Of a stretch of 64,000 nucleotides of DNA, positions 2,648 to 64,000 are shown one piece after another. Source of the stretch: Azolla caroliniana (Eukaryota; Plantae; Polypodiophyta); contig JBHGNT010000022.1 of NCBI GenBank assembly GCA_043228905.1, forward strand, positions 2,294,001 through 2,358,000, written 5' to 3'. Numbering within the stretch: the first letter of the stretch is position 1; every line of letters starts with the position of its first letter. The position numbers and the translations under genes are program-made. Below the pieces are notes generated by a model that made no database searches, was not told the origin of the DNA, and saw nothing but the letters and a program-made list of their open reading frames with translations.

Positions 2648-2651
2648 CATT

Positions 2652-2669
2652 TGGTGAACCCGACGTGAA
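2652..2669 (+). promoter_or_regulatory. Primer-binding site, tRNA-Trp
   Basis: TGGTGAACCCGACGTGAA is the complement of the plant tRNA-Trp 3' end (...TTCACGTCGGGTTCACCA, recalled). Confidence 0.9.
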
Positions 2670-2685
2670 CACGGGTGGCAAGGAG

Positions 2686-8204: not shown

Positions 8205-8305
8205 TCACATAATGGGAGAAATTGAGGGTACTACGGATGAAGGAGAATAACGAGCTCCAACAACTTCGGCACATACTAGAGGATGTGCGGATTCAAAGGG
8301 GCGAG

Positions 8306-17298: not shown

Positions 17299-17309
17299 TA
17301 CAACAACAT

Positions 17310-17463
17310 GGTAGCTAATTAGCTACTCAGCTACATCTTAGCTAACTAGCTATTCTTCTAGACTGTGACAATAGCTAATTAGCTACCACTGAGCTAATTA
17401 GCTACGTCGCTTAGGTATGGTAATAGCTAATTAGCTCAGTGGTAGCTAATTAGCTACTCTTTG
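17310..17463. repeat. TAGCTAATTAGCTA array, left part (contiguous with 35909-36405 before the insertion)
   Basis: Same palindrome on both sides of the CTTTG TSD. Confidence 0.85.
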
Positions 17464-35365: not shown

Positions 35366-35908
35366 AAAAGGGGGAGTATCTTACGGTCATGACCATATGA
35401 TATCCCGCGGTAAAAATTTACCGTAGTATTCTATACACATGGATAAGTGTGAGAGTTAAATGAGAGTGTAAAGAAGGGGAGGATTACTTTTAATCCTCAG
35501 GATTGAGATAACCCGTTAAAGCAAGTGTGAACTTGCTTGGGGGCCTTGGGTATCGCTACAAATATGAGGCCTAGCTACCCTCATTTCATCATATCTTGAC
35601 TACGTTGAGACTCTAACATTGAGGTGGGTCAACTCTTGTAGCAAGCGCGCCAACACCAGGTACGACTCGACGCCACAATGGTGGTATGGGATGCCGATCG
35701 AGGCTCAAGTCCATCTCGATTCCTTCGCTCGGGGGTGGTCGGGTGGATCGACACCCTTCTTTCTCTCTCTCCTTTCTATCTATCTGTGTTTTATCCTTAT
35801 CATATGCTTAATTTAGATCATAACTCTAACAATTGGTATCCGAGGTTATGTTGCTAATGTTTCCTTTGTTTGTTTTTGTCTACTTTAGATCATAAGTCTA
35901 GCACTTTG

Positions 35909-36405
35909 TCAATATGGTAGCAAGTAATTAGCTACTCTACTAAAGTATGGTAGTAGCTAATTAGCTACCACTTAGCTAATTAGCTAATGTACTAAACTAT
36001 GGTAGTAGCTAATTAGCTACCACTTAGATAATTAGCTACTCAACTAAAGTATGGCAGTAGCTAATTAGCTATTGCAATAAACTATGGTTGTAGCTAATTA
36101 GCTACCATTTAGCTAATTAGCTATTGTACTAAACTATGGTTGTAGCTAATTAGCTACTCAGCTAAAGTATGGTAGTAGCTAATTAGCTATTGTACTAAAC
36201 TATAGTAGTAGCTAATTAGCGACCACTTAGCTAATTAGCTACTCAGCTAAAGCATGGTAGTAGCTAATTAACTACCACTTAGCTAATTAGCTACTCAACT
36301 AAAGTATGGTAGTAGCTAATTAGCTACTGTACTAAACTATGGTAGTAGCTAATTAGCTACTCAACTAAAGTGCAGTAGTAGCTAATTAGCTACCACTTAG
36401 CTAAT
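35909..36405. repeat. TAGCTAATTAGCTA array, right part
   Basis: Regular GTAGTAGCTAATTAGCTAC units. Confidence 0.92.
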
Positions 36406-36508
36406 TGTGAAAGTTAGCGTGCGAAAGCGTTCGACAAACCGACTCAACCGGATAGCAACAGAAAATGAGAAAAGGTTTCATGGAGAACTTAACACAAAGA
36501 ATACGCAT

Positions 36509-38354: not shown

Positions 38355-40991
38355 GTGGCAATGGTAGTGCCCCAGTACTTAGCCTCAGTACTTGATAGAG
38401 CCACTGTTGGCTGCTTTTTGCTCCTCCACGCAACAACCGTGCTACCAAGAGAAAACATATTACCGGAGGTGGGTCGACGATCCGATGCATCCCAACCCAG
38501 TCCGTATAACAGTCAACCAGCTTCCCAGCTATACCGTGTTGGTATAACAGTCCCCGATCCTTCGTGCAGCTAACATACCGGAGTATCCGGTGTGCGCACT
38601 GAAGGTGCTCGACGATCGGCTTCTGCATGAATTGGATGATCACTTCGACCGGATACATGATGTTAGGTCGAGTGATTGTCAAGTATATGAGGCTTCCGAC
38701 AATTTGTCAGAACTGTTTCTCATCACAGGCCGGGTCAAAGTCAGGACGTAGCTTCAGGTTCAAGTCCAGGGGTGTAGAGATCGGTCAACATTCTGTCATG
38801 CCGAACTTGTACAACATATTCAACACATAATGGCGTTGTGAGAGAAATATGCCATCGAGGGTTCGAATCACCTCGATCCCAAGAAAATAATGAAGGTCCC
38901 CCAGGTCCTTCATTTCAAATGTGTCTGACAGCTCGGACTTCACTTGGCTGATTTCAAGAGTACGGGGCCGGTGATGACTAAATCATCTACATAAAGAAAA
39001 ATGCAAACTGGACCGCCCGGACCGTTCTGGATGAACAATGAAGAGTCAGACTTTGAGGCCACAAACCCCATCTTACACAACCGATGTGTGATCTTCGCAT
39101 TCCAAGCTTGGGGGGCTTGCTTTAGACCGTAAAGTGACTTCTTGAGGCGGCATACTGCCAACTTGTTCATCTCCGATTGGAATCCGGGGGGTTGGATCAT
39201 ATAGACCCGTTCTTCAAGATCACCTTGAAGAAATGCATTCTTCACGTCCATTTGGTGAAGATGCCATCCCCTTGCCACAACAATTGTCAGTACCACGCGA
39301 ACCATCGTCATCTTCACTACCGGAGAGAAGGTCTCGTCGTAGTCGATTCCGTGGGTCTCTGGGTATCCCTTCGCCACTAACTGGGCTTTGTATCGATTGA
39401 CCGAACTATCGATGTTGTACTTTACCTTGTACATCCACTTGCAACAGATCGGATTGCACTATCCGGGTGGGTCAACCAGGTCCCAAGTGTCGTTGGCATT
39501 TAGTGCTCGCATTTCTTCCTCCATAGCAGCACGCCAACTTGCGTCTTTTGTTGCTTCTGCGTAGCTCTCCGGCTCACGCACCTCCACCCCTTAGTCATGT
39601 ACGCATAGTGATGTGCCATGTACTCATTGTATCCGTACCTTTGGATGGGGTTCTTCTGGCAGATTGAGTGGCTTAACTTTCCGTTAGCTAGTTTGAGGCC
39701 ATTTTTGGCCGGTTCGGACTTCCTTTCTGAAGATCCGCCTTCTTCCTTTCCGGGGTCAGATCCGCTTCAATTTGACCCTTCACTGCCGGTATCGTATTCC
39801 AACATCTTCTTCTTCCCCTTCTCTTTGCGCGTGAACCGTCTCCTCCGTTCCTTGTGCGGGGAGAGCATGACAGAGTCTCCACTACTCGCTGGTTCTTCAT
39901 CTGACTGGTCATCCCGATTCAGCCGTTCATTCGGTCCACTTAGCCGGAATTAGATCAGAGTCTCTTCTAGAGTGCCGAAGTCTTCATCATCTTCCAGGAC
40001 CTCGTCGGGCTCAATAGCCTCATCTTCCGGAATCAGGTCTTCGTCGGGAGTTGGAGTCAGTAGGGTGTACCATGATGCCGACTCATCAAACTCAACATTT
40101 CGACTTACTCATACTTGTTTAGTACGGTAACACTTATAACCCTTCTACTCATGTGAGTAACCGACTAGGATGCAGTTCTCCGACATCAGATCTAGCTTCT
40201 TCTGCTTCTCATCCGGTACATGCACATATGCTATGCTACCGAATATCCGAAGGTGCCTCAAATTTGGTTTCTGCCCGAAATACAGCTCCTATGCGGACAC
40301 CTTGTCTCCGATCCGGTTTTGGATGTAGACGGCTGTCCGTACCGCCTCAACCCAGTAGAATTGGGGCATGCTTTTCTCCTCTAGCATTGCCCTTGCCGCG
40401 TCGACAATCGACCGGTTCTTCCTTTCAGCCACACCGTTTTTGCTCCGGTGTGTATTTACCTCTGAATTCTTTCCGAATTCCGTTCTGCTGCAGATAATTG
40501 TTGAATTGGGCGGAAAAGTATTCTTTTCCGCCATCCGACCAAAGGCACTTGTTCTTCCTCTCCGTTTCCCATTCAACTAAGCTTTGAAGGTTTCAGAAAC
40601 ATTCGGAGACTTCGCTCTTCCTCTCAATGAGGTAGATCCATGTGTGTTGGCTGTAGTCGTCTATGAAGGAGATGAAATACCAAATCCTGCCAAGACTAAT
40701 GTTCTATGCCGGTCCCCATACATCTGAATGGATTAGATCAAGCCGGTGTTGCTTTAGTTCGGTACGGAATGGAAGCCGGTGTTCCTTCCCGAGTTGGTAG
40801 GCTTCACATATTTGGGCCTTCCGACAACTTAATTTCGGCAATCCGAACACAACTTGTTTCAATTGCAGGTCTTGAAGCCTTTGGTAATTGACTTGCCCGA
40901 TCCGCTTATGCCAGAGATCGATGTCTGATTCAATCTTCTGTCCTTTGGCAAACATGGCGGTGCTGACGTCATTAGTGTTGAGGATGAACAT

Positions 40992-43075: not shown

Positions 43076-43290
43076 TATTCCCCAAGTTCCACTTCGTCAG
43101 AAACCAAAGTTCAAATATTTGAGTATTCTCATAAATTAAATGACATGTATTTAACTAATAAAACATAAAATTTCGTAAACCATCCTTATGATTTGCCTAC
43201 AAAAAACTAGCTAAATAAATAGCTAATTAGCTATGGCCATTTTAGTAGCTAATTAGCTATAATAGTGTTTCCACTCGCATGCTTTTACCC

Positions 43291-44051
43291 GCATATGAAG
43301 CAAGAATTGGCAACCACCTTGTGGCTCCCACTTTGGGGAAGATGAATATTGATTTGCATGCAACAACGTACAACCACTTATATCATTTTTCTTTATCAAG
43401 AACACGTGATTGAATCTAATATTGTTTAGTTGGGCTAACACTTTCACATTTTCGTCCGCGCCATCTCCTATGTATCTGTTAAAGTTGTATATCTCCTTTA
43501 AGTGGATCACATTCGGACGTGGTGTATATGCATCACAAATGACGTCAAATAACTTCGGTAATGTGAAAGCATCATATTGAGACATCTGTCCAGAGAATGT
43601 ACTAAACATCTGATCAATATGGTCATGTGTGTGACCAACTAGAATGAAGTTAACTTTAACTTTCCTAAACATTCCTTGTTTCACCAACATGCTCAAATAT
43701 CCAAAGATGGTTGAATTCTTGTTCTCCCTAGCAATGTTGTCCAATTGAATGTAGAGAACTAGGAGTGATGGGAGTCCCCAATTCATCAAAACCCTTTGAA
43801 TCACAGTAACTATTAGGTTGGGGTTGTTGTGGACATTCCGGTAAGCAATGAAGACATGAGGTTTAATTATCCCATTATAAGCCAAACAACCCACCAAATG
43901 CATCTGAACGGGACATTTGTTGACGTCTTTTGAAAGCCTCCTAAGGTGGGGCAGACTCGTCTTCTTCCAGTACATACCATCAATCATTAGACACATATAT
44001 TGCTTCGGTTTCTTCAATGACTTCTCTTTGTGATGCATCGGTTTTTTCCGT
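43291..44051 (-). pseudogene. Sola1-like (DUF7869-type) DDD transposase catalytic region
   Basis: CLMIDGM...LYIQLDNIARENKN...VGHTHDHIDQMFS; cut on the right by the LTR element at 44052. Confidence 0.8.
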
Positions 44052-47000
44052 TGTCGCGAAGATTTTCGGCAATGGTGTGAAAATCGCATAAAACATACGA
44101 AATCGAGTATGAATCATATAAAACAATAATAGTGAAAATACTATTTAAAATAAGTTTAATATCTTAGCACAAAAAGATGGAGGTCTTCAAGAGCTTTCGA
44201 ATGCACTTTACTACATAAGAAACGAACATGTAAGTCTCAAGTTATGTGGGTAGGAAGTTTGCAAAGGAAAAGAGAAAGATAAAACTATGAGATATCCCAC
44301 ATAGACAGGACAAATAAACTTCGAATCCTTCCGGTTCAGAAGCCCGGAAATTCCACCTCACGATCCACACCTAATAACGAATCTTCACGACATAATTAAG
44401 TGGTAAACCCGATGTGAAGAAGCGGTAGGAAGGATCAAGACGAGGATCGACTAATACATGGAGATGGCATCCTCAAGCAATCAAGTGGGAGAGTTCGAAA
44501 GAATGATGATAATCGTCGAACAAATGATGAGATCTCGAGACAACGATGCGAGCGTGGAGAAGGCGACAATGTCGTTGAGCTCGAGGGTCAATTTGATGGA
44601 AGGAACATTATGAAGTTCCTTGATGGATATAGAAGGGAGATGAATTAGAGGGACGTGTTTGAAGCGTGTCAAATCACGAGTTTCAAGAGAGTGGTCACCA
44701 ATAACATCCAAAGACACATCATCGAGCTTCAAGAAGGCAAGAAAACATGGTCCGAATTTGAGAAAGCGATATTAACGGAGTTCACGACGGAAGATTTGTC
44801 AAGGACGACGGTGAAGAACCAAAGGTCAAAGCTAAAGAGAGAAGGATAATTGAAGCTTGTTCGATCAAGAGGGTCAATGGGTGCGAGGCCCATGAGATTG
44901 AAGAGATAGCCACGAAAAACGACATCGAGTCGGAGATGGCTATGAACGAGTCGATGGCGGATGGTCATGTGGAGACTTTGCTAACACTTCATCTAGAGAC
45001 TTGGAAAATTGCGTCTGGGAACCAACGTGAGACCCAAGAGACAGATGGTGGCGAAAAGGAAGAGAAGGACTAAGATAATACAGCCAATGACGACCACCAA
45101 ATTTTCTCCACACTTGTTCCAGACACTTGGGCAATTGCGTCCGAGAACCGATGTAAGACCCAAGAGACGGGAGGTGATGGCGAAGTACTGAAGGTCAAAA
45201 CTAATACATGAGGCAAAGAGAGAAGCATAATAAAGGATTCCTCAATAAAAAGGATCAATGGGTATGAGGCCCATGACTTTGAAGAGATAGCTATGGAAAA
45301 TGACGTCAAGACAAAGATGGTGAATGGCCATGAAGAGCCTTTCCCCACACTAGTTCTAGAGACTTGGGCATTAATCGATGTAAGACCCAAGAGACAGAAG
45401 TTGGTAGCGAGGAAGCAAAGGTCAATACTGATTCGAACAACTTTAAGATGGAAATGCCTAAGTGCTGCACGAGAAAAGTCGATGATGGAAATGTATGGGT
45501 TCCTCCACACTTGTTCTAGAGACTTGGGCATTAACCGATGTAAGACCCAAGAGAAGGATAGTGATGGGGAAGAAGCAAGGGTTAAAGCTGATATGTGCAA
45601 CAAAGAGTTTGAGCAAAATATGACAAGGGATGGCGATGACCAAGCAAGCCATGAGGATCCAAAGGATTTGATCAAAACATCTACCACAGACACTATTGTG
45701 AACGAGTCAATGTACCTTGAGCAAGGAGACGATCGAGACAAAGGTGGAACATTCATGAGATTTAAACGATTATCCTCAAGAAGAGAACAAGGGGCCATGA
45801 CAAGAAGTCATAGTAAACCAAATAAAAAACGAATGGTATGGTGGATTGGGTGGCAACAATGATTCGAGTACAAAGAAACATACATGCTCGACGTTGAGGA
45901 ATCATGCTAATCACAATTGCCGAAATCTCACATTCTCTATTCTTGACACGTACTGGAGGACGTGCGGTTTGGTGGGGGTAGATGTCGTGAAGATTTTCGA
46001 CAATGGTGTGAAAATCGCATAAAACATACGAAATCGAGTATGAATCATATAAAACAATAATAACGAAAATACTATTTAAAATAAGTGGTAAACCTAGTGA
46101 CGGATCTTCATGACATAATTAAGTGGTAAACCCGACGTGAAGAAGCGGTAGGAAGGATCAAGACGAGGATCAACTAATACTTGGAGATGGCATCATCACG
46201 CAATCAAGTGGGAGAGTTTGAAAGAATGATGATAATCGTCGAACAAATGATGAGATCTCGAGACAACGATGCGAGCGTGGAAAAGGCTGTCGCACCTAGT
46301 GACGGATCTTCACGACATAATTAAGTGGTAAACCCGACGTGAAGAAGCGGTAGGAAGGATCAAGATGAGGATCGACTAATACTTGGAGATGGCATCATCA
46401 AGCAATCAAGTGGGAGAGTTTGAAAGAATGATGATAATTGTCGAACAAATGATGAGATCTCGAGACAACGATGCGAGCGTGGAAAAGGCTGTCGCACCTA
46501 GTGACGGATCTTCATGACATAATTAAGTGGTAAACCCGACGTGAAGAAGCGGTAGGAAGGATCAAGACGAGGATCGACTAATACTTGGAGATGGCATCCT
46601 CAAGCAATCAAGTGGGAGAGTTCGAAAGAATGATGATAATCGTCGAACAAATGATGAGATCTCGAGACAACGATGCGAGCATGGAGAAGGCTGTCGACTA
46701 TGTCGTTGAGCTCGAGGGTCAATTTGACGGAAGGAACATTACGAAGTTCCTTGATGGATACAGAAGGGAGATGAATCAGAGGGACGTGTTTGAAGTGCGT
46801 CAAATCACGAGTTTTAGGAGAGTGGTCGCCAATAACATCCAAAGACGCATCATCGAGCTTCAAGAAGACAAGACAACATGGTCCGAATTCGAGAAAGCGA
46901 TATTAGCGGAGTTCACGACGGAAGATTTGTCAAGGATGAGTCTACATAGCTTGATGAGGTGGATAGAGAAGAAAAATAAGAAGATGAGCGCCTCGAGGGT

Positions 47001-48547: not shown

Positions 48548-50006
48548 GGTCGTTGCCTCTGCTGTAACCGCCGCCTGTTGCAAAGATCGTGAGCACGAGG
48601 TTGTTCCCTCCGTGAACTCACTGTTGTACATTCTAGCATAGTGATAGTTTGCAACCGGTGGGCTCCCGTGGTTTTTTCCCTAGTTTGGGTTTTTTCCACG
48701 TAAACATCCTGTGTACTTTTCTCTCCTTTGTGTCACGTATTTTCCGTTTCCTGTTTTCTGTGTATGATTCTAAGCTTGGTTGTGGCCGAGTGTTGTGCAT
48801 AAGGAGCGTTGAGTTCTCGTCAAGTGGTATCAGAGGGAAACGACACAGAAATTGGACGAATCGTTTGGCGGCATGTTCAAGCTCACCGGCTCCAACTATT
48901 CAGTGTGGAAGTCGAAGATGAGGGACATGCTCGTGGTTAAAGACCTCTAGCTGCCGGCTCAGTTCGGGGACAAGAGACCGGACAAAATCGACGCCGTGAT
49001 ATGGGAAGTGATGCACATGAAGACAACGGCGTACATACGGTGCTTCGTCGACATGAGTCTGTACAACAACTTCAATGAAGAGAGTAAGGCTCATGAGCTC
49101 TGGGAGAAGATCGACATAATGTTTCAGAACAAAAATGTTGTTAATCAGGTTTCGGTATTCCGGAAGCTAGTAAGACTCCGGTACCAAGATGGCTCCAGCA
49201 TGGCGGAGCACATGAATGCCTTCCAGGGGCTGATACACCAGGCAACATCATTGGAAGTACCTCTCGCTGACGAGGTACTAGCGCTACTCCTGCTCGGTTC
49301 CCTCCCGGATAGCTGGGAGACGTTGGTCGTCACTTTGGGCAACGCCGGGCCGGAAGGAAAGTGGTTATCCCTAGCAAGAGTAAAGTCGAGCTTGCTAGTT
49401 GAGGAGGTGCGTCGGAAAGATAAAGATACGTGCTCTGACTCCTAAGTGCTCCTTACCGAATCAGAACGCGGAAGACATAGAAACCGTAGTCCCCAGAACT
49501 AGGAGAAGTCAAGGACACGGTCAAAGTCAAGGGGGAGGCCCACTTGCTTTTATTGCGGCAAGCCGGGACACTTCCAAAAGAACTGTCGGCATTTCCGTAA
49601 AGACAAGGAAACCGACGGTACCGATTCGAAACGGACCCCGGACCGGAACGGTAAAGACCGGAGGGGAACGGATCGGAAGGGAACGACGGCAATCACGGCA
49701 AGTGAAGAAGAGTTGATGCTCATCACCGAGGACAGTGAGATAAACCTTGCCGACGACGACATGACCTGGGTGGTATACTCCGGAGCATCGTTCCACCTTA
49801 CCCCGGACTGGAAATGCTTCTCATCCTACTCAGCTGGTGATCACGGCTGTGTCCGGATGGGGAATGAAGGTACATGCCGAATTGTCGGCATAGGAGACGT
49901 GTGGCTGTCAACACCAACCGGATGCAAGTTGCTGCTGAAGGATGTTCGACATGTTCCGGAGGTTCGTCTGAACCTGATATCAGCCGGTCGGCTAGATGAT
50001 GAAGGC
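48028..50006 (+). mobile_element. Tnt1-like Copia 5' portion (LTR ~48028-48822, iMet PBS, gag-PR)
   Basis: PBS TGGTATCAGAG at 48825; MFKLTGSNYSVWKSKM, LLLGSLPDSWETL, CFYCGKPGHFQKNC, WVVYSGASFH; ~54-bp U3 repeats at 48104-48340. The LTR start is uncertain. Confidence 0.88.
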
Positions 50007-52302
50007 TGTTGACCGGTCAGAAGAGCAAGGACAAGTGGGAAGGCGGAGTCGGATCGGATAATAGGAAGTAAATAATAGTATAATTATTATTCGGAGGGAC
50101 GGATCCGGTACAGTTGTACGGATCCGGATCCGGACCGATTCAGATGCCGGTTGCCTAAGCGCACTGATTGTAACCTTGCCGGATGCCTATAAAAGGATCC
50201 GATGATTTGTAAATGCTTTACGGAAGTAATACAAATATAATTATGGCGTGTTTATCTTCATCTTTGTATTGTTTTACCGTTTGTGCTTAGTATAATCATC
50301 TTACGCGTGTAACCTAGCATCCAATCCTTACCACCCCTTTGGAGAAGTGTCGGATAGACACCTGTGTTGAGGCTAGTCCGGCCAGGCAGACAACACTATT
50401 TTGGCGACCACGATTCCTGCAAAGTGCAGAGGACAACCGGGGGATGGATGTCTAGACCAAACGACGACCACATCACCGAACGAGGGAGACGATACACCGA
50501 ACGAGAGCAACGACGGGAAGCCCTACAGCAAGCCGTCGACGAGATCCGGCGAGATCGGTCATTCTCCAGAACTCTTCGGAGAGTCGAAGAAGAAGCATTG
50601 CAGTTCTGGGTTCTGCAAGTCCCCGACGAAGGCAGTAGCATAACAAGCCTGCAAGAGGCGGAAACGATACTACAGACGCTCTCCGGTGGCGACGGGGACT
50701 CGGAAGCATTCGCAACACTTGAGGCGGAGTCGGAAAGCGACGGAAGCGTTGCGTCCCGGTATAAAAGCAGCCACGACACACCAAACGACCCGGGGGAAGA
50801 GGAGTCGGAAGACTCAGTAACACCGGAGCCAGAGGAAGAAATAACCTTGGAGTTCGGTGACCGGCAACCGCCGAGGGAGGCTGACCGGATACCGACAACA
50901 CCCGCGAAGGAACTGAAGGAGCGGATACCGACAACACCCGCGAAGGAACCGAAGGAGCGGATACAGCCAACACCCGCGGAGGAACCAAAGGACCGGACAC
51001 CGGCAACACCCGCGGAGGAACTGAAGGAGCGGATACCGGCACCAACCGCGGAGGAACCAAAGTTTCTCACACCGACGCAACAGCGAACAGAGAGCGGAGA
51101 AAGCAGGAGAGTCAGTTGGACGACACGATGCCGTACCCATACCCAAAGTACCGGGATGAGCCCGACGCGGAGGCACACGTGTACGCATTCCTCCAAATAT
51201 GAGAAGCCAACCATGTCTCCCAAATACTGACGGAGCCCGAAGCCGAACGATCCAAAGTCGCTGAATTCGGCATGACCTTAGAAGGACCAGCGGCCCGATG
51301 GCACGCAAAGCACTTACCGGGCAGCTTTGCCACATTCGATGCCTTGAAGGCCAAATTCCTCAGGCTTTTTCACAGACAAGTTGAGCAAAGGGAATTGGTC
51401 GGGCAGTTCTACACCAACCGGCAGGAAGAGAACGAGACTGTGCCACAATTCATCATTCGGTTTCAGACCCTGCACAACCAACTGACGAGAGCACCACCCG
51501 AAGACGAAGCCAAAGCAGTCTTTTTGGCCGCGCTGAAAGAGCCACTTCGAACAATGTGCGGAGTCCTTGATTTCCGCAGCAGCACAATGGACCAAGTTAT
51601 TGATCGGGTCCTAGAAATGGACAAGACTAGCTCCTTCTTGTCGATGGGGATGTTACACTGGGCACTCCCGAAGGAGGAAGACCTGAGGTTCCGACAGGCC
51701 TTACAATGCACAACATGCCTAAATTCGGGCCACTCAACGGTAGACTGCACCCTGTGGACACAATGTATGATCTGCAACTCTCGAGCCCATACAACGGACC
51801 GATGCGAATATAACCTGTTAAATCGGCAGGCAGCACCGGTTCGACACATAGAACCGCGCAATCAGAACCCTGTTAACTCTTCGGGCCGGACAATGGCCTA
51901 ACACAGGGTGTCTACGTGAGACATTTCACCAAAGGGTGTTACGGCAACCGGATTAGACTTCAACGCTTAATCCGACTTAGTTAAGTTACTTATTAGGATC
52001 GTCTTCATAACACGCGTAAGATATACAATTAAGACAGAACGGCAATTGACAGAGATATAACAACGCTTAAGCTTTCATTAATTAACCGCTAACTATTACA
52101 TTGTATCCGGGCCTTTAAATAGGTTTCTGGTCTGTATTACAAAACGATGCCATCCGCACCTGTTCGGGATCGGTCCGGATCCGGAACGGCATACCAATTC
52201 CGGTCCGTCCGTCCACACTCATAGCTTAATTACAACCACATTCCTACTACTTAATTAGCTCTCCGTTTCCCACTTTGGACTCCTTTGCCGGCCGGTAACA
52301 CA

Positions 52303-52319
52303 TGGCACGCTCGTGGGAC
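52303..52319 (+). promoter_or_regulatory. PBS-like site (tRNA-Arg UCU type), antisense to the element, at the PPT position
   Basis: TGGCACGCTCGTGGGAC lies 2 nt inside the LTR; compare the complement of the tRNA-Arg(UCU) 3' end, TGGCACGCCCGGTGGGAC (recalled). Confidence 0.65.
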
Positions 52320-52406
52320 AGTACCTTGTACGTCGAATCCACAACCGACCCTTGCTATTCTTCGTCCAAAATGTCTAGAATGCTCTATTCGAGAGGCTCC
52401 AATGGT

Positions 52407-55296
52407 TCATCTGGAAGTGGTTGTTGTTGTTGTTGTTGCTGTTTGCTGCGGCGGGTCCGTTGGTGGTTGCTGCGGCTGCTCCTCCGTTTGTGGCTCTGAC
52501 ACCGGCGTCTCCATCGTTGCTCCCTGCGTCGTGGCGGTCTCCGGTTGACTGGTTCCCGGCTGGCCCTCAGCCGACGACGGTTCCTCATCACTAAGGTTAA
52601 CCGTTGTCGCTTCCTGCGCTTTTTCTTCCCGTACCCAAGACCGCTCGTAGCTTTCAAACTGGATTTGAGCGTCCAGCCTATCATCGTCCAGCTGAGCTAC
52701 GAGCTGTCTGACCTGCGCCAGCTGTTCATCTGCCAGGACTTGGAAGTCGTCGGCCAGCTCGTCCCGTATGGCGGTGAAGTCCTCGGAAGTCAGCGTATAA
52801 CAGTCATCTCCTTCCTTCCGCCGGTTTGCCACATCCGCCCGTAGCAACTGGAGTTCCGCCGCGTTTTGTGCCCACTTTGTCCACCATTTTACGGAGCTTT
52901 CATCAATCAAGTGCTTCGTCTGATTCAGCCATGCCCGGAGGATGGACTGAATCCGGCTCGTTCCCAATTGCGATTTGGTTTCTACCGCTTGCCATTCCTC
53001 CTTCAGTTGTTAGATGATTTTTACGTTGTCCTCCGCCTGCGCCTTGTAATGCGTCAGTTGCCTTTGATATGTACTTTGTAATTTCTGCAATACTGTAGAC
53101 GCTCTCTCTTTGTCTTCCTGCTGCTGCTTCTGGAGCTCCATCCGGACCTTCTCCGCCTCTTCCAAGCGTCTTGTATTTTCCGCCCGTTCGTCGGCGATCG
53201 CCGTTGCGGCCCGATCAACTGCCTGCTGGAGCTCGGCCATCCGTTCTTTATGCTCTATTTCCAGCCATTTGTAGTCCCGGTGCAGGTGCTCAAAATCATC
53301 CGTCTTTTGCTTGAGCCGTTCGTTGATCTGACGACGGGCCCGGTCCTCGCGGTCCTTCTGCTGGCGGAGCTCTTCCTTTAGCCGTTATATCTCTGTTTCC
53401 ACCGTTTTCCTTTAGCCGGTCGTACGCTTGATGGCCTTTCCGGAGGCTCTCCTCTGCCCGGCGGAGGTTCTCAGCAGTCTTCTTTAATTCGGCTTCGGCC
53501 GCCGTCTTCAATTCTCGTTCACGACTCCTTAGCGCTTCTTGTGCGGCAAGTTCCTCTCTCAATTCCGCAAGCTCCCGAGCTTGCGCCGCATCTCTCGCCG
53601 GAACGGTTTCCGTTGCCGGGGTCTTATTCCTATGTACAGGTCGTTCCGTTTCATTATTCTGTACACTTATCGGAGTCACCGGTGATTGGATCCGTATTTT
53701 AGCCATCTCCGTCGTGACCTGATCCAAATCTTTTTCAAGGCACCGGATTCTGGACCGGGCTGTCTCTAGTTGTTCGGTTGTGACGAGCAACCGTTCGCTT
53801 TGCGCTCTTTCTTCCGCCTCTATATACCCCACTGCTCCGGCTATCTGTTCGCCTATCCACCGGAGCCACACGCTACCGGTGCCTTGTTGTGCTTGCACGG
53901 AGGTTTGATAGATGGGCTCACTTGTAGAGGGGTGGTTCCGCCTGGTTGCGCCGAGTTGTAGTTCCGTTTCTGCCCGTGGACCATCCTGCTGTCCTTGGTC
54001 CCCTTGCGCTTCTTCTTGGCTGATCGAGGGAGGCTGCAGTGACCTTTCCGGCTCTGGCGGAATGGGACTTGCCGGTGTTGCCGGTGGTGCCGGGGCTTCT
54101 GTTTCCGGTTCCTTCTGCACCGGTTCCGGTTCCTTCCTTGGCGTAGGAGTCTCAGTATGGGGAGCCGGTGTTCCCTCCACTTGAGGGTCCGAACGTTTCC
54201 CGGCTGTCTCAACGGTCCTTGCCGACGACCGTCGCTGGAGGTGCTCCGTAGGCTCCTCCTCTATTTCCTCCTCCTGAGCTCCGGCATTGAGTTTTGCCGC
54301 CAAGGGGTCCACTTCTCGATTCACCGGTCGGCGGAGTGTGACCTTTACGGGTCGTGCCGGTGGTTCCTCCTGCGCCTCCGTTGGGCGCTTCCGGCTGCCA
54401 CTTCCTGCTGCCGCCTGGTCTGCATCCACCGCCTTTCCCTTACTGGCCTTAGAGGCCAACAGCTGCTGCCGTTTGGAAGCCGTCCTTGGGGTGTCGTCCG
54501 GCACTCTTCCTCGCTTCTTGGGCTGGACGGTCTGAACGGGTGGCACCAGCAGGGTGAGCCACTGCGTTACGGCGTGCCATATCCTTCGTCCGTCTTGGCC
54601 TTCTTTGCCGTCTTTGCCTCTGACGATCTCGATCGCCGCACACAACCCGTCTGCAATCAATACCGGCCAATCCACCTTGATCCCTTCATAGGTGGCGATG
54701 ATCATCCCTGCCCGGTTCTGCGGCATGACAGGGGGTCTAGGGTATACATGGCCGTATTCATGGAGCACACGAGCAATTTCGCGGAACAGCATATCTCCGC
54801 CGCCCTGTGTTCGGTAGCCCTTGCTGGCTAGAGAGTACTCACCAAAATACCTGATGAGTTGCTCCGGGGTTGGATTGTCGATCGTGAGTATGCCTCCCTC
54901 CGGAAGGCCTGTTAACGCTCGAATCGCCTCTGCCGTTATGACCTCTGTATCAATTTCCTTGATCACTTTGTCGGCTTCTTTGTGTGGTGGTACTTCCATC
55001 ATCATCAGGAAGCCCTCGAGCCCGTGTTGCTTCAGCCATGTCTTGGCGGCTTCCGACAGCGTTTGAGGGTCCATTTCTGTGTCGGGGTCGGACTGCGGTG
55101 GCGAGGATGGATGGTGATGAGAGCGGGGTTGAGAAAGAGAGAGTTCAGAAGGCGGGGGTTCTCTGTGCGCAGGTTCTCTTCTGATAATCTTGCAGCGTTT
55201 CGGTGCTTCTGTGCTCCTGGGTTCGCGAAAATAGAGGGTCTCTACGCGCAATGGTTTTTGTCTGTGCATTCTGGCGCCTTTTTCGAGTTTGTGCAT
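52407..55296 (-). pseudogene. Extra ORF downstream of pol (globular N-terminus, Pro/Glu linker, coiled coil), broken into three pieces
   Basis: ORFs 53296-55296, 53010-53240 and 52407-52967 are collinear, on the same strand as pol, and lie between the integrase and the 3' LTR. Confidence 0.7.
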
Positions 55297-55450
55297 GTCA
55301 CGTACTTAAAATAGCATTATGTCCTGTGGTGGCGCTTTAAATGCCCACTACGTACCTTTTCGCTCCACGCTCTTTTATCCATTCATTCCTCGCTTTTGCA
55401 TGATTGTTTTTTTTTTTTTTTTTTCAGTTATTATTCTTATTAGTGTGACG

Positions 55451-58336
55451 TCACATGTCCGTTGGTCCTCCCGGACCCTTACCGGCCACATTCTCTCCGG
55501 TTACCGGCTTGCCGTCTCTACCGTCTTCGTGGCTGCCGTCGATCCTTTGCTCAAACGGGTTCTTAGGCATCGGTCCTCTATATGCCTTTAACCAGAATCC
55601 ATTCACCCATTTGCCCAGCACTTCGCCGGCAAGTGTCCCCAACTGGTAGGACCCATTATACTCCCGTGTTAGCCAATATGGTCCGGTCCATCTAAACCTT
55701 AGTTTACCCGGCATCTTGCCCATCCGGGTTTGGAATACTAGCACTGGTTTGCCAATTGCGAACATTTTTTCGTTACCTTTCCTGTGCCGGTCGACGAATG
55801 CTTTCCGTCGCCGTTGCTCTAATTCTAAATGTAGGATGCTGGCCAACCGTTGTTCCTCCAGCTCACACAGCGCTGTCAACCTTATTGTCTCTGACTCCTT
55901 CTCGTTCAGCCGTTCTCGTAGCTGAATCCGTAAGCTAGGTACTTGAAATTCTACCGGCATGACCGCCTCGAGTCCGAACGCCAACCGGAACGGTGTTGTT
56001 CGGATGCTCGTTTTGTATGCCGTCCGGTATGCCCAAAGCGCGCTATGTAGCTTTCTGTCCCAATCCGTCCGGTTCTCGTTGACGATCTTCCGAAGGATGT
56101 TCTGGAGCGTCTTGTTTGTTGATTCCGCTAATCCGTTCGCCTGTGGATAGTAAGGTGTGCTTCGTTTGTGGACCACGGCATAGAAGGTCGTTAGGCTTTC
56201 CACCACTTGTCCGAGAAACTGCCCCCCTTGGTCACTTATCAATTCAATGGGGCATCCGTAACGGCACCAGATGTACTCATATAGAAACTTTGCCGTTGAC
56301 GCAGCGGTGTTATCCCGTAAAGCTTTGGCCTCCACCCATTTCGTGCAGTAATCCGTAGCAACGATAACGTACCGATTACCTGTTCTCATTGCCGGTGGCT
56401 TGAACGGTCCTATAAAGTCCCGCCCCCACTTTTGGAATGACTCGAGTGGTAGTACCGGCTGGTGTGGCATACGAGCTTGCTCCGTTGGCTGGCCCATTCT
56501 CTGGCATAGGTCACATTCTTTTGCGTACCGTACCGCATCTCTTAATGTCGTTGGCCACCATAGGCCACTTTGCCACATTTTTCTGGCTGTCGCATCTCCG
56601 ACATAGTGACCTCCGGCAACGCCGCAGTGGGCTTCCCTCAGTATCAGTTCTTTTTCATCGCTGCGCACCGCCCATCTCCATATGCCGTCAGCTCCCTTGT
56701 GGTACAGTGTGTCTTGCAGTAAGCAGAAATGTCGGCTTTGTACCGCTAGGCGTTTTCGTTCGTCCCGGTTCAGCTCTTCCGGAGGCAGTCCTGTGCTCAG
56801 AAACTGGTGCATATTTGTGAGCCACTTGTCTTCCTGGGCTACTGTCTCATCTGCTGCCGTCTCCGTAGTGACTCGAAACAGCTCCGCATCCGGAAACTCA
56901 TCCGGTACTCCGTCACCCGTCTCTCCGGACTCCAATCGGCTTAAGTAATCTGCTACGGCATGCTGTATATCGGGTCGGTGGAATATTTTAAACTCGAACT
57001 CCTGTAACAGTAAGGTCCACCGGGCCAATTTGCTGGTGAGTGAGGCCTTGGACACCAGGTAAAGGAGTGCTGAATGATCTACATGGAAGGAAAACTTCCT
57101 TCCCAATAAATAGTGCCGAAACTTTGTCACAGTGTAGATCATTCCTAGAGCTTCCCGTTCCGTAGTAGAGTAGTTCCGTTCTGCTTGGGATAGCTTCCGG
57201 CTGGCATAGTACACTGGCTGGTACCACTTTGGTTCCGTAAGCTGCATCAATACGCTTCCGATCGCGATGTCGGAGGCGTCCACGAACACGTGAAATTCTT
57301 TACTCCAATCCGGAGGTTGTACTACCGGTGCCTGCGATAATAGTACCTTGAGGGCCTTATACGCCCTATCCTCAGTATCGGTCCACTGGAATGGTGTCCG
57401 ATGTACGGCGGCATGCAACAGTGTGGCCAGGTCGGCCAAGTATCGGAGCATCCGGCTGTGCCACCGGATCTGGCCTAAGAACCGGCTCAATGCCTTTGCC
57501 GTTGCCGGCGCCGGTGCTTCTAATATGGCTTTCACTTTGTCCGGGTCGACTGCTATACCTTCCTGGCTTACGATATGTCCTAATAAAGTTCCACTGGACA
57601 CGCCAAATACACACTTTGCCGGATTCAAGCTTAGCCGGTACGCTCTACACTTTTCTAGACAAAGACGGAGATGCTGAAAATGGTCCTCCTCCCGGCTATA
57701 GACGGCGAAATCGTCAAGGAAAACCTGCATAAAAGCCGGTATATATTCACCAAAGATTTCCATGATGATTCTTTGAAACGTTGCCGGTGCTGTTTTGAGT
57801 CCGAACATCATCACCACGGCCACAAACACCCCCCATTCGGTGATGAATGCCGTTTTCTCTTGGTCGTCGGGGTGCATCCGGATCTGATTATATCCGCTGA
57901 ATCCGTCTAGGAAGCTATAGACCTCATGGCCGGCGACGGCATCCAACACGCCATCTGTGAACGGAAGTGGAAATGCATCCGTTGCCGTAGCCGCATTGAG
58001 TTTCCGGTAGTTCACGCAAACTCGAATTTTTCCGTTCTTCTTCGGTACGACTACGATCGGGCTCAGCCATGTCGCTTTCTTTACCGGACGGATAAAGCCA
58101 ACTCTTAGCAGTTTGTCGATTTCTTCCTTGACCTTGGCAGCATAATTGGGATTCATTCGGTACCGTCTTTGTGCCACTGGTTTTGCGGCTTTGCTCAAGT
58201 GCACTTGATGCTGGTATAACTGAGGGTCGAGTCCTCGCATGTCTTCGTATGACCAGGCGAATACGTCGCGAAATTCCGTGAGAAGTGTTATCATCGCCGT
58301 TTTGTCTCCGGACTTCATCTCCTTGGCGATGTGCAC
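55451..58336 (-). CDS. pol RT-RNase H-integrase (open for 961 aa, frameshifted upstream)
   Basis: LDGFSGYNQI, FLDDF, VDASDIAIG, HHCC zinc finger, DYCTKWVEA, SDQG, QANGLAE, WTGPY. Confidence 0.92.
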   Translation of the reverse strand: MHIAKEMKSGDKTAMITLLTEFRDVFAWSYEDMRGLDPQLYQHQVHLSKAAKPVAQRRYRMNPNYAAKVKEEIDKLLRVGFIRPVKKATWLSPIVVVPKKNGKIRVCVNYRKLNAATATDAFPLPFTDGVLDAVAGHEVYSFLDGFSGYNQIRMHPDDQEKTAFITEWGVFVAVVMMFGLKTAPATFQRIIMEIFGEYIPAFMQVFLDDFAVYSREEDHFQHLRLCLEKCRAYRLSLNPAKCVFGVSSGTLLGHIVSQEGIAVDPDKVKAILEAPAPATAKALSRFLGQIRWHSRMLRYLADLATLLHAAVHRTPFQWTDTEDRAYKALKVLLSQAPVVQPPDWSKEFHVFVDASDIAIGSVLMQLTEPKWYQPVYYASRKLSQAERNYSTTEREALGMIYTVTKFRHYLLGRKFSFHVDHSALLYLVSKASLTSKLARWTLLLQEFEFKIFHRPDIQHAVADYLSRLESGETGDGVPDEFPDAELFRVTTETAADETVAQEDKWLTNMHQFLSTGLPPEELNRDERKRLAVQSRHFCLLQDTLYHKGADGIWRWAVRSDEKELILREAHCGVAGGHYVGDATARKMWQSGLWWPTTLRDAVRYAKECDLCQRMGQPTEQARMPHQPVLPLESFQKWGRDFIGPFKPPAMRTGNRYVIVATDYCTKWVEAKALRDNTAASTAKFLYEYIWCRYGCPIELISDQGGQFLGQVVESLTTFYAVVHKRSTPYYPQANGLAESTNKTLQNILRKIVNENRTDWDRKLHSALWAYRTAYKTSIRTTPFRLAFGLEAVMPVEFQVPSLRIQLRERLNEKESETIRLTALCELEEQRLASILHLELEQRRRKAFVDRHRKGNEKMFAIGKPVLVFQTRMGKMPGKLRFRWTGPYWLTREYNGSYQLGTLAGEVLGKWVNGFWLKAYRGPMPKNPFEQRIDGSHEDGRDGKPVTGENVAGKGPGGPTDM

Positions 58337-61254
58337 CGGTTTTTGCTTCGTCCGTGGTGCCTAAATTCACCTCTTCCAATTGCGATGCTTTCACGCGCTG
58401 TGAAACGGCCATTTACCGTTCCAACGCTTCCTGCACTTGTCGTAACTCCCGGATTGCGTCTTTATCCGGTTCTGCTTCCGCCTCTTCCGGTTGTGGTAAG
58501 TACGGTGCTACGGCTTCGGCAATGTCAATATCGAACAGGGGTATGATCTTCGGGTTTTCCCGCAGGTATTGAGCTTCTTCTTCGTCCGCTAACCCTTCGA
58601 GCATGTTGACGCATTCCGCATACAACGGTGTACATTCCTTGCGAGTGCTCGTCCTTGGCTGTGTTGGTACCGTACCTTGGCTTTTCCTCGCCGGAAGGTA
58701 ATTATATTTTTTCGCCAATTCTGTTTGATATGTGCCGTTTTCAACCATGGCCGCCCCAGCAATAGTGGGTATGCGCCTTGTGCCTGTAATTGTAGCACTA
58801 TGGCCGAGATGTGAAATGTATGCCCGCCGACGGTGACTTCTAATTTCCGTATTAATCCTGTCGGCCGCACTGAGCTTGTATCGGCCATCCGCAACCAGAA
58901 CGGACACGGCTCCCACTCGTGGATTCCTAGGTCCTCACACGTCCGGAGGCTTATTACATTTACCCCAGAGCCTCCGTCTATAACTGTGCCGGGGAGTTCT
59001 TTCCCTTTTACAATGGCAGTGATTACCGGACTGCTGGTGTCTACCACTGTTGGTCCCTCCTCCGGATTCGAGAAGAGTACCAGTGCCAGTGATGGTTCTC
59101 CTGCCATCATGGCCATCTTCAGTCCTTCCGTGAATCTAGGCATGAGTTGTAGGAGTCTTCCTAGTGGTAACGTAATCTGGCATTCTTGCAACGCCTGCCA
59201 TGTCTCGTTCTCGGAGTGACTACCGCCGGCAAGCCCTACGGTGTTCTCCTTTTGCTGCTGTAAGTCTGTGGCATTCTGCTCGTTTGCTTTCTTTACCCAT
59301 TCCGTTGCTTGTTTGCGGATGGTTTCCTGTGTCTCCCATTCTTTGGCCATGCCCTTTGATCTTGTGGTCACCTGTTGCAGGTCTGCCACCTTAGGGACTA
59401 CCATATTTACCGCCGGTCGTTTTTCATAGCTCTTCACCGGGCATTGGTTACTATAATGGTCTTCTTGTCTGTAGTAGTAGCAGTAGGCTTTCCGGGCATT
59501 GCTAGATTCGGCATTGTCTGTTGTACCCGGGGCAGGTCCTACGGTACGCGCAGGCTTTTGTACCGGTTGGCTACTTGGAGCGCCTTGTTCCGGGTCCCGG
59601 GGGTAGCCGCCTTTTTTAAAATGCCATTTTTTGTTAAAGCTCTTCTTATTACGGTACTCTTGACGGGTTGCCCGTTATATCGGCCGTATTCCTCCCGTTG
59701 CTGACGATACCCGGGGGAGTGCTCCTGGTCGTACTGTTCGTATCGTCTATTGTAATCTTGGTGCCGATCATGCCGGTCATAGTTATCTCGCCGATCACCG
59801 TACCGGACATCATTTTCCTGTCGCTCGCCGTACCGGACATTATTTTCCCGTCGCTCGCCATACCGGACATCCTGTGCTGGTCGGTCACGGTCCATTCGCC
59901 GCCAACGTTCGTCTTCTTCGTCTCGGCTGCTGCGTGGCTCAATTTGTTGGACGGGCGATGCTTGCCAAGTCAACAGATTATACTCGCACCTATCCGTCGT
60001 ATGGCTCTTGGACTGACAGATTACACATTGCGTCCTCATAGTGCATTCTAGAGCCGAGTGTCCGGAATTCAAGCAGGTTGTGCACTGTATTGCTTGCCGA
60101 AACCGGAGGTCTTCATCGGACGGTAACGCCTGTTGAAGTGCGCCCAGTGTGAGCCAGGAGCTTGTCTTTTCCATCTCTTTCACCCGGTCAATGACCTGGT
60201 CGATGGTACTTGTACGGAAATCGATTACCGTGCAAACCGTGCGTAGGGGTTCTCGGAGTGCGTTTAGGAATATCGTCCATAATTCCTCCTCCGGGGGTGC
60301 ACGGGTAAGCTGACTATGCATCCGTTGAAACCGGATGACAAATAGGGGAATGCTCTCCCCTGCCTCTTGCCGGATAGTATAAAATAAGCCTACCATTACG
60401 GTCTGGTCCACCTCCTTTTGAAAAAAATGCATGAATTTAGCTTTTAAATCTGCAAAGGTGTTGATGGTAGACGGGTCCTGCGTCCGGCGCCATCTTGCTG
60501 CCGGTCCCTCCAATGTGACGCTAAACTCTGCTATCTTAGAGCGTTCTTCTTCCTCCGGTGTCAGTCGCTGGGACACATGGTTGGCTTCCCATGTCTGTTC
60601 AAATGCATGCACATGAGCTTCCGCGTCCGGATCATCTCTATACTTGGAGTACTGGAACGACATGTCGTCGTCCAGTATCGGTGCGCGGGCTAGTAGTGTT
60701 GGTGCTCGTTCCAGAATTTTCTCCGGTGTCGGTGGTCTTTCCCGATTTGATTCCGGTGTCGGTTGTTTCTCTTCCGCTGGTGACGGAGGCCTCTCCTCCT
60801 CGACTTCCGGTGTCGGAGGTCGTTCTTCTTCTGCTGGTTCCGAGGATTCCAGCGTTAGCACTTCCGGTTCCGGTTCCGGTTTCGGTAAGGTATCCGATCC
60901 TTCGTCCTCCGGTCCGCCCGGGGTTTTGTTGCTGCTACGGTAGTTCGTGTGCACGTTGTATTCCCCTTCGGAGTTCGATTCATATGCTGAAAAGGCCTCT
61001 GCTTCGCCTTCTCCGTTTGCCAACGCGTGGAGAAGGGATTCGGTTTCCCGAAGGCTGCTTAGGCTGTTGCCGTCGTCCGGGTGCGATGTTTGCTGTAACC
61101 AGTGGGAGTCCTCCGCTACTCTCCGGATTACGTTGGAAAACGAGCGATCCGCTCTAATTTCCTGCGCCGCTTGCTGGAAGGCCTCGCGTCTCCTTTGCCT
61201 TTCGGCAAGGCGTCGAGTTCGATCTATAACCAGGTCGTGCGTTGATCTAGACAT
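58337..61254 (-). pseudogene. gag-protease, frameshifted
   Basis: Gag with CTTCLNSGHSALEC and CVICQSKSHTTDRC knuckles; protease VIDGGSGVN; paralogous to the host element. Confidence 0.88.
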
Positions 61255-64000
61255 CCATCTGTGTCGTCGTTTGCTGCAAAAACAAGAATCGTGGTCGCCA
61301 AAAACTATGTTAACTCTTCGGGCCGAACAATGGCCTAACACACGGCGTCTATGTGAGACACTTCACCAAAGGGTGTTACGGCAACCGGATTAGACTTCAA
61401 CGCTTAATCCGACTTAGTTAAGTTACTTATTAGGATTGTCTTCATAACACGCGTAAGATATACAATTAAGACAGAACGGCAATTGACAGAGATATAACAA
61501 CGCTTAAGCTTTCATTAATTAACCGCTAACTATTACATTGTATCCGGGCCTTTAAATAGGTTTCCGGTCTGTATTACAAAACGGTGCCATCCGCACCTGT
61601 TCAGGATCGGTCCGGATCCGGAACGGCATACCGATTCCGGTCCGTCCGTCCACACTCATAGCTTAATTACAACCACATTCCTACTACTTAATTAGCTCTC
61701 CGTTTCCCACTCTAGACTCCTTTGCCAGCCGGTAACAAACCCGGATGAGGATCGATTCCGGAGAGACGACCGCTACCAACGCGAACGCGGTAACAGATAC
61801 GTTGATAGAAGACGCGATAACTATGACCGAGAGGAGAAACGCAGAGATAGCTACCCCCGGGACCGGTACGACCGAGACGAATCCCCGGAATACGAATGAC
61901 GCAAAGAAGAGAGGCGACAAGGGAACCGAAATTTCCGACGGAATCAGAAGCGTGGATTTTTCCGAAGAGAGGAACATCGGGAGGCAGCAAGGAATGACAA
62001 CTCGGTATCGGTATCAGATAACCGAAAAACCGAACACGACCGCCGAAGTATACCCACCCTCCAAACCGGGGACAAAGGAGAAACGAGCAACAGTCACAAG
62101 GTGTACTGTTATTACTGCCGTAAGGAGGGCCATTATAGTAACCAATGCCCAAGCAAAACCAATGACAAGCAGCCGGCAGTCAACATGGTTACAGCCCAAA
62201 TAACAGAAGTACAGCAGGTCACAACTCGGTCAAAGGGAAAGATCACCGAGTGGGAAGCCCAGGAGGCAATCAGAAAACAAGCGGCGCAATGGATCAAGGA
62301 GGCCAATGAACAGAATGCGGCAGAAGTAAGAGACCAAAATATGCCAAAAGACGAAGAAATCATACAGCCAGGAGAAAACCCGACGTGGCAAGCGCTCCAG
62401 GACTGTCAAATCGTGCTGCCGTTAGCACGGCTACTACAGTTGGTGCCACGGTTTACGACAGACTTACAGGCATCCGTGGGCAAACCGAAGCCGATGCCAG
62501 CACCGGCATTCTTCTCCAACCCGGAGGAAGGACCAGCTGTGGTCGATACAAGTAGCCCGGCGATCACGGCAATCGTGAAAGGAAAGGAAATTGCTGGAAC
62601 GATTATTGACGGAGGCTCCGAGGTGAATGTCATCAGCCGACAGACATGCGACAACCTGGGCATCCGGGAATGGGAACCATGCCCCTTCTGGTTACGCATA
62701 GCGGATACCAGCTCAGTCCGACCGACCGGGCTTATCCGGGATTTGGAAGTAACGATCGGAGGCCACATATTCTGGATATCGGCCGTGGTGCTGCAGCTGA
62801 ATGTACAAGGCGCGTACCCCCTACTGCTAGGACAACCATGGCTGCGAACGGCGCATATCAAGCAGAACTAGCAAAAGAACATGATCACATTCCGGCGAGG
62901 GAAAACAAAGGTACGAGTAGCGACGCAACCACGGGTGATCGCTAGTAAGGAAGCAACTCCACTATGTGCGGAAAGCATCAACATGTTGGAGGGATTACCG
63001 GACGAGGAAGTCGATCGGTACCTCGAGGAACACACACGAATCGTCCCACTATTTGAGGTGGATATCACGGCGGCAGTAGAACCGTACATCACGACGCCGG
63101 ACGAACCGGACCAAGCGGCGATCCGGGAACTGCGACAAGCGCAGGAATCCCTAGAGAGGGAAATGACGATATCCCAGAGGGTAAAAGCATCCCAACTAGA
63201 GGAGGTGGACCTCGGCACAACAGACAAGCCCCGACCGGTAAATGTCGCAAAGGAATTGCCAAAGGAAGAAAAGAAGGCAATGGTATCATTATTAACAGAC
63301 TTCAAGGATGTGTTCGCGTGGTCGTACGAAGACATGCGAGGGCTGGACCCCCAGCTCTATCAGCACCAAATTCACCTAAGTACGGACGCGAAACTGATCG
63401 CTCAACGCAGGTACCGGATGAATCCGAATTATGCGGCGAAGGTGAAGGAGGAGATTGATAAGCTCCTCCGGGTCGGACTTATCCGACCGGTCAAGCAGGC
63501 AACCTGGCTGAGTCCGATAGTGGTGGTCCCGAAAAAGAACAGCAAAATGCCGCAACGGTGACCGATGCGTTTCCACTACCATTTACGGACGGGGTGCTAG
63601 ATGCGGTAGCCGGCCACGAAGTTTGCAGCTTCCTGGATGGATTTAGCGGTTACAACCAAATACGAATGAACCCGGCCAACCAGGAGAAGACAACGTTCGT
63701 TATGGAATGGGGAGTGTTCGTCGCGGTCGTGATGATGTTCGGACTAAAGACGGCTCCAGCGACCTTTCAAAGGATAATAATGGAAATTTTCGGGGAATAT
63801 ATCCCCGGTTTTATGCAGGTCTTCCTTGACGATTTCGCGATCTACAGCCGGCACGGAGAGCATCTCGATCACCTCCGGCTGTGCTTAGAGAAGTGCCGCG
63901 AGTACCGGTTGAGTTTGAACCCGGCCAAGTGCGTCTTCGGAGTGGCAAGCGGCAACTTACTAGGGCACGTGGTGAGTAAGGAAGGAATCACGGTAGATCC

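Follow-up and report, generated by a model that had tools for sequence, protein, structure and literature searches.

Element A and its genomic setting

The window, that is, the whole 64-kb stretch of DNA that was analysed, contains a Ty3/gypsy element of 9.9 kb on the minus strand (51871–61737), which was named as element A and has LTRs that are 97% alike. The 3′ LTR (51871–52300, minus strand, TG...CA) and the 5′ LTR (61308–61737, minus strand) are 430 bp each and identical at 417 of 430 positions, and 12 of the 13 differences are transitions (K2P 0.031). The element is flanked at both ends by the 5-bp target site duplication AACCC, at 51866–51870 on the left and 61738–61742 on the right. The RT, RNase H and integrase are encoded in an open frame of 969 codons with the catalytic motifs present (55451–58360, minus strand). 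In this copy the gag and protease region (58413–61362, minus strand) is spread over several frames, and an extra sense ORF downstream of pol (52407–55305, minus strand) is likewise broken; all the long ORFs (gag, pol and extra) are on one strand. Pfam found gag, protease, RT, RNase H and integrase in the Ty3/gypsy order, the protease being below the cut-off (E 0.004). The best PDB match of pol was the Ty3 Gag-Pol (E 8.7e-88), and the RT, RNase H and integrase motifs are intact and align with those of Ty3. A preliminary description of this DNA had claimed a normal PBS next to the 5′ LTR, and TGGCGACCAC (61291–61300, minus strand) indeed starts at 61300, 7 nt inside that LTR. The TGG site at 7 nt is common to element B and to a metagenomic relative, L002. 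The tRNA of this PBS, which we take to be of the Arg-UCG type, differs from that of the 3′ site described below; just 4 nt of the PBS match the tail of L083, a bacterial tRNA-Arg.

Element A has inserted into gag of element B, a related plus-strand element whose 5′ LTR and PBS are at 50007–50411 (plus strand) and which resumes at 61743 and runs off the window. Element B in turn lies inside a copia element. Copia remains are present at 48825–50006 (gag, with an iMet-type PBS at 48825) and at 38940–39458 (RVT_2); with element B inserted in the former, there are three nested levels. Elsewhere in the window, two related LTR elements (1919–9029 and 26183–29645) have the PBS TGGTGAACCCGACGTG, presumably of tRNA-Trp type, and are purine-rich before the 3′ LTR. 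The one at 26183–29645 is short, may be non-autonomous and has a T-loop-like GGGTTCG word upstream of its purine tract. Arrays of a self-complementary TAGCTAATTAGCTA unit were seen at 12000–13500, 17300–17460 and 35860–36410, and the region 43253–44113 near these arrays encodes DUF7869.

The extra ORF has an N-terminal helical domain (54511–55077, minus strand) followed by low-complexity and coiled-coil parts. The domain is common to the metagenome loci L007, L008, L017 and L021 and has 179 relatives, and the ORF had no clear counterpart in Pfam or by Foldseek. The model of the domain (pLDDT 77; one of five models confident and one middling) matched VANC21 (9lnk_A, a transposon DNA-binding protein) with Z 6.3 and rmsd 4.0 over 172 aligned residues, the next Z being 2.5. 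VANC21 is an anti-silencing protein of VANDAL transposons. On this tentative likeness of the predicted structure, the clade may encode an anti-silencing factor of its own. We saw no link of the domain to priming. At the C-terminus of the ORF (52373–52406, minus strand), an IL(D/E)IL-acidic tail is kept in element A, L002, L007 and L021, and the sequence preceding it is unrelated.

A conserved tRNA-like site where the PPT is expected

The bases adjoining the 3′ LTR had been described as a tRNA 3′ end including CCA in place of a purine tract, and both parts of this description were confirmed. On the plus strand, 2 nt separate TGGCACGCTCGTGGGAC (block A, 52303–52319) from the end of the LTR at 52300; this spacer (CA on the plus strand; 52301–52302, minus strand) lies between the LTR and the tRNA-like CCA and is also of 2 nt in L002, L007 and L021. 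Of the 15 bases adjoining the 3′ LTR on its inner side, 53% are purines, and a run of at least seven purines occurs no closer than 178 nt. Block A, 17 nt long, complements tRNA-Arg positions 59–76, leaving a single tRNA base unpaired and including one G:T wobble. The match to tRNA-Arg(UCU) with one wobble and one gap, given in that description, also held, the tail cited there being that of L083, called as tRNA-Arg(TCT) by ARAGORN. The tRNA match resumes beyond a 13-nt insert with a 4-bp hairpin (52320–52332), which falls between tRNA positions 58 and 59. This second part, block B (52333–52344, plus strand), lies beyond the segment first reported, is identical at 11 of 12 positions with one wobble and complements the 5′ strand of the T-stem and the T-loop (about tRNA 47–58). 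On the sense strand the order is thus the T-stem/T-loop block, the 13-nt insert and the last 18 nt of the tRNA minus one base.

When both strands of the window were scored with the 18-nt tail of L083, the site was the top-scoring place ending in CA (14.5, against 12.5 and 10.5 for the next ones). This 17-nt margin by itself is modest, with one tRNA type scored, and the case lies in the position, the second block and the conservation. The site is non-coding, as the extra ORF stops upstream of it in all four of element A, L002, L007 and L021. In the 300 nt upstream, the longest match to the other half of the tRNA (5′ strand of the acceptor and D arm) was only 6–9 nt; therefore, the whole tRNA fold cannot form at the site. 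No tRNA gene was predicted by ARAGORN in the window or, when it was run without introns, in the 73 metagenome loci (one implausible prediction with a 2-kb intron was disregarded), and Rfam gave no match across 52200–52500.

Relatives were sought by a metagenome scan, from which the best 80 of 535 confirmed stretches were used, representing 73 loci. Among these, the 17-mer was found within three edits in 6 of 73 loci. In L002, L007 and L021 it adjoins the LTR, with 2 nt between it and TG, and both blocks are kept. These are the only close relatives among the best 80 of 535 stretches that reach the junction, and, as collapsed metagenome contigs from one accession series with a single LTR each, they gave three of three related contigs in which the motif is kept and the PPT is absent; siblings with an ordinary PPT had been named as what would speak against the claim. 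Their Pol is 91% (L002), 73% (L007) and 76% (L021) identical to that of element A. The LTRs of element A, L007 and L021 have no mutual blastn match, and the LTR of L002 is 76% like that of element A. The sites deviate in places: even the CCA is mismatched in L002, the T-loop has a mismatch in L021, and one tRNA base is unpaired in all four. L055 and L057 carry the motif in the opposite orientation, as the full 18-nt complement in a normal PBS. The match in L008 was rejected as a chance one, being inside the extra ORF instead of adjoining an LTR. Viral contigs yielded neither relatives of element A nor matches to the motif.

More distant relatives with a readable junction (L020, L029, L034, L045 and L053) have a purine tract 0–3 nt from TG in five of five cases, the LTR start being read from the purine tract and TG in L020, L034 and L045 and from LTR pairs in L029 and L053. 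In an integrase tree of 40 rows, element A, L007 and L021 fell in a 14-row clade (support 100/100) that has no PPT-labelled row, 11 of the 14 rows being without a visible junction and the root being a midpoint root only. The tree left out 34 of the 73 loci, L002 among them, for having less than 200 residues of the integrase query, and L030 received its PPT label by likeness to L029, its junction being unseen. The clade stands on its own long branch, apart from six rows that carry a tRNA-Asp PBS or lie near ones that do (L028–L031, L045 and L048), in a tree without named reference elements. In L024, a relative on the PPT side, a protease-like stretch (6076–6700) apparently follows the integrase in frame.

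The conservation was also visible in the contigs of DNA sequencing runs aligned to the site. Contig depth over 52230–52480 peaked at 52293–52337 (45 nt), several-fold over the flanks, in four of four runs, and loose contig ends clustered at 52294–97 and 52340–47 in the same four of four. Thus, a 45-nt island is common to many contigs with unlike sequence on either side. The variant table for 52276–52334 gave no alternative letter at 3% or more, though L002 and L007 differ there; the table misses variants over the site, and aligning contigs to the site favours likeness.

The insert hairpin occurs in three stem versions, GTAC/GTAC, GGAC/GTCC and GCGC/GCGC, with 28 of 28 cells paired. Two of seven pairs change on both sides, and 4 of 500 shuffles reached the covariation score, with four sequences only. 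The compensatory changes occur among related contigs that include two with unrelated LTRs. When free, the strand takes up a long hairpin in which 7 nt of block A are concealed; this fold is no better than that of shuffles (z −1.4 to +0.5).

Pairing of the last 30 nt of the tRNA with the minus strand was predicted using RNA parameters for an RNA:DNA hybrid and the bacterial tRNA (L083) as a stand-in, which gave co-fold energies of −32.9, −27.4, −34.9 and −25.1 kcal/mol for the four sites. None of 200 shuffles was as good at any of the four sites, so that the match is beyond chance, one of the points on which the original claim had been said to depend. In four of four predictions the co-fold is a three-way junction at tRNA 58/59, with both blocks paired and the 13-nt hairpin looped out. 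Block B adds to the binding energy, since only 0, 10, 0 and 12 of 300 block-B shuffles were as good at the four sites. The split between the blocks falls at A58/G59. The modified base m1A58 is unable to pair in Watson–Crick fashion and is where copying of the tRNA stops, at 18 nt (accessible part of PMC13191261). The A58/G59 split would fit a tRNA:DNA duplex that is naturally interrupted at this point, and it also agrees with block A having begun as a captured 18-nt copy.

The identity of the tRNA was pursued with a 20-nt pattern from the site, which was composed with a tRNA in mind and hit 20 prokaryote loci. Of these, 14 have an ARAGORN-predicted tRNA across the matching stretch, all tRNA-Arg (13 TCG and 1 TCT), and a tRNA was likewise predicted at one of two viral loci. 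Three of four runs aligned to L083 (X1, X2 and X6) had contigs over the last 30 nt of the tRNA. The listed pieces from X1 and X2 over these 30 nt numbered eight, with 0–2 other letters, and from 146 to 179 of L083 the aligned contigs gave no row with another letter. Run X23 had no contig aligned to L083 and was not counted as evidence. The loose ends on L083 extend across an anticodon arm that differs from that of the bacterial tRNA, with TCT in X1. These findings point to a host gene family of the tRNA-Arg(UCU) type, although bacterial tRNAs or long PBS copies may account for some of the pieces. In X2 and X6, the Arg-tail copies have TTT in the anticodon loop by majority letters, against TCT in X1, as variant genes or pseudogenes would. 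A loose end of X2 at L083:147 shows LTR-end-like sequence beside a tRNA complement that seems to reach beyond position 58, to about 30 nt. The split site could have arisen from long PBS copies. The own PBS matches the L083 tail over 13 nt in L007, 9 nt in L021 and 4 nt in element A and L002. The 5′ PBS was seen to have switched between two tRNA types within the clade while the 3′ site stayed (61291–61307; L007 5512–5529; L021 4199–4211), and the PBS matches of the clade are short, 9–13 nt where tested, at 4–7 nt from the LTR. These results together confirmed that the tRNA-tail site is real, conserved and structured; the route by which it may act in priming is what we infer from them.

Possible priming of the plus strand

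We consider it rather likely, judging from the letters and predicted pairing, that host tRNA-Arg(UCU) anneals to minus-strand DNA and primes the plus strand in this PPT-less clade. Because the element RNA is identical to the tRNA at the site, the tRNA can bind minus-strand DNA only. When so bound, its CCA would point into U3, two bases before TG, where the PPT primer is normally located. Both blocks would be paired with the terminal 30 nt of the tRNA, and the 13-nt insert would loop out as a hairpin. RNase H would clear the RNA, and the CCA end of the tRNA would then be extended on minus-strand DNA, with two extra bases laid down ahead of the LTR TG. Subsequently, RNase H would remove the tRNA and integrase would trim the two extra bases. 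The site would be copied from the RNA genome instead of the tRNA, and the persistence of the fixed one-base gap would thereby be explained. The clade would then probably have given up the PPT, with both strands primed by tRNA and, in family A, by two different tRNAs. Particles of family A would package two tRNAs, one per strand, whereas families of the L007 and L021 type would use the same tRNA twice.

A rather unlikely alternative is that the primer is provided in cis, i.e. that the tRNA-like RNA of the element itself resists RNase H and acts as an atypical PPT, having begun as a captured tRNA copy. The resistance would come from the hairpin and a 10-nt tail ending in CCA, which would mimic a tRNA primer. 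The position and the 2-nt spacing are the same as those of a PPT, and a primer cut from the element RNA would have identical letters and position. In addition, the covarying stem is part of a long hairpin formed by the sense strand, RNase H is intact, and no second tRNA would be required in the particle. However, the energy of this hairpin was not above that of shuffles and the upstream half of the tRNA is missing (longest match of 6–9 nt in 300 nt). Self-priming also leaves unexplained why the tRNA-like T-loop letters, the CCA and the 3′ strand of the acceptor are found across families with unrelated LTRs, and why the insert is placed at 58/59. Of the two readings, priming by the host tRNA better accounts for the kept T-loop letters and the 58/59 split.

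It is clearly improbable that the site has a role other than as a primer, for instance by pairing with the own PBS in RNA circularisation or dimerisation or by binding tRNA fragments or processing factors, with the plus strand starting at some other signal. Pairing of the 3′ copy with the 5′ PBS was predicted at −25.1 kcal/mol for L007 and −19.8 kcal/mol for L021, and the bipartite PBS of Ty3 also has a part at the 3′ end (PMC5371799, in its accessible part). That 3′ part of Ty3 is, however, complementary to the tRNA, whereas the site of element A is identical to it. In element A and L002, moreover, the PBS is for another tRNA and the predicted pairing is only −8.6 and −8.0, with the 3′ site unchanged. 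A PBS that changed while the 3′ site stayed argues against a role in pairing between the two, and no other purine tract is near the LTR of element A.

The preliminary description had also proposed replication from transcripts of either polarity, in which sense and antisense full-length RNAs would be packaged and each primed beside its own 5′ LTR. A TGG site does lie inward of each LTR, yet beyond this symmetry the proposal gained no support and we regard it as highly improbable. The gag, pol and extra ORF are all on one strand, and the two sites are unlike in spacing and build, the 3′ site being split, of 30 nt and with a 2-nt spacer, against 9–13 nt and a 4–7-nt spacer for the PBS. For its second strand each route would still require a primer, and this brings the argument back to a plus strand primed by tRNA. 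That the site is a functionless relic or a chance match in a single dead copy is hardly credible, since, in spite of the breaks in gag and the extra ORF of this copy and a 17-nt score just 2 points over the next place in the window, it is kept in non-coding DNA of families with unrelated LTRs and with compensatory changes.

Priming of the second strand at a PPT is treated as common to retroviruses and LTR retrotransposons in the accessible parts of PMC5371799 and PMC13191261. A successful and recently active clade without a PPT would mean that this step is replaceable. Whether by a tRNA in trans or by a tRNA mimic in cis, the priming route would be one of which no account was found in the literature searched. 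Such elements would offer a natural system for studying primer choice and removal by RT and RNase H and the annealing of tRNA to DNA, and they raise the question whether tRNA fragments could block both strands. Annotation tools that score the PPT would class them as defective.

Relation to known elements

The closest named relatives of the Pol are from the liverworts Riccia and Marchantia (41–45%), followed by seed plants (about 38%), and nearest of all are metagenome proteins at 76–91%. The host is on this ground probably a land plant other than a seed plant. A profile search of the 969-aa pol frame found no chromodomain, and element A is therefore not a chromovirus. A second, archaeal-type RNase H was found neither in pol nor in the stretch before RT, and there is no long insertion relative to Ty3, which sets element A apart from Tat (TatI–III, Ogre and Retand). 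The definition of Phygy and Selgy as short elements in which the polyprotein fills the internal part (PMC6317226, accessible text) does not describe element A, which has an extra ORF of about 3 kb after pol. Element A is a non-chromovirus Ty3/gypsy element that is nearest in make-up to Athila-like elements. As far as the available text of PMC6317226 goes, the plant non-chromoviruses (OTA/Athila, Phygy and Selgy) resemble element A in the order gag-PR-RT-RH-IN, the 5-bp TSD, an ORF after pol, a tRNA PBS several bases from the 5′ LTR and the lack of a chromodomain and of any second RNase H found. Three types of primer, all for the first strand, are given there, with tRNA-Arg among those of the non-chromoviruses, and a PPT precedes the 3′ LTR (same source and part); this PPT is kept in them, whereas element A is without one. 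Diaspora, of Athila, has an 18-nt tRNA-Asp PBS (PMC1142308, in part), the type seen in L020, L029 and L045, from which the PBS of element A differs.

The absence of a PPT in element A, L002, L007 and L021 is unlike the canonical replication with PBS and PPT. An extra tRNA site may have been described in Drosophila micropia. A tRNA site replacing the PPT had no account in the literature searched, whose coverage excluded subscription journals and Repbase, and no precedent appeared in the accessible parts of PMC10886601, PMC13524379, PMC2797524, PMC12220202, PMC4139406 and PMC1142308. The tRNA tail searched as text gave only unrelated matches in papers and was absent from the available supplementary text files of PMC6317226. 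The Helenus TRIMs (Kojima, 2024; PMC10886601, in part) are, like element A, LTR elements with tRNA-derived sequence. In Helenus, however, this part is within the LTR and promoter-like, the elements are non-autonomous, and both PBS and PPT are kept.

Ty3 and HIV-1 use a tRNA at the PBS for the minus strand and have the plus-strand signal just upstream of U3, as is the case with element A, according to the parts of PMC5371799 and PMC13191261 available. The plus strand of Ty3 is primed at the PPT (PMC5371799, same part), and in both Ty3 and HIV-1 a purine-rich segment of the element RNA serves to prime the plus strand (PMC5371799 and PMC13191261, same parts), whereas element A has a copy of a tRNA tail there. 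The bipartite PBS of Ty1 and Ty3, in which two blocks bind the acceptor end and the T arm of the tRNA, is likewise comparable with the predicted site of element A (PMC5371799, accessible part). In Ty1 and Ty3 these blocks are on RNA and serve the minus strand, whereas those of element A are on minus-strand DNA at the position of the PPT.
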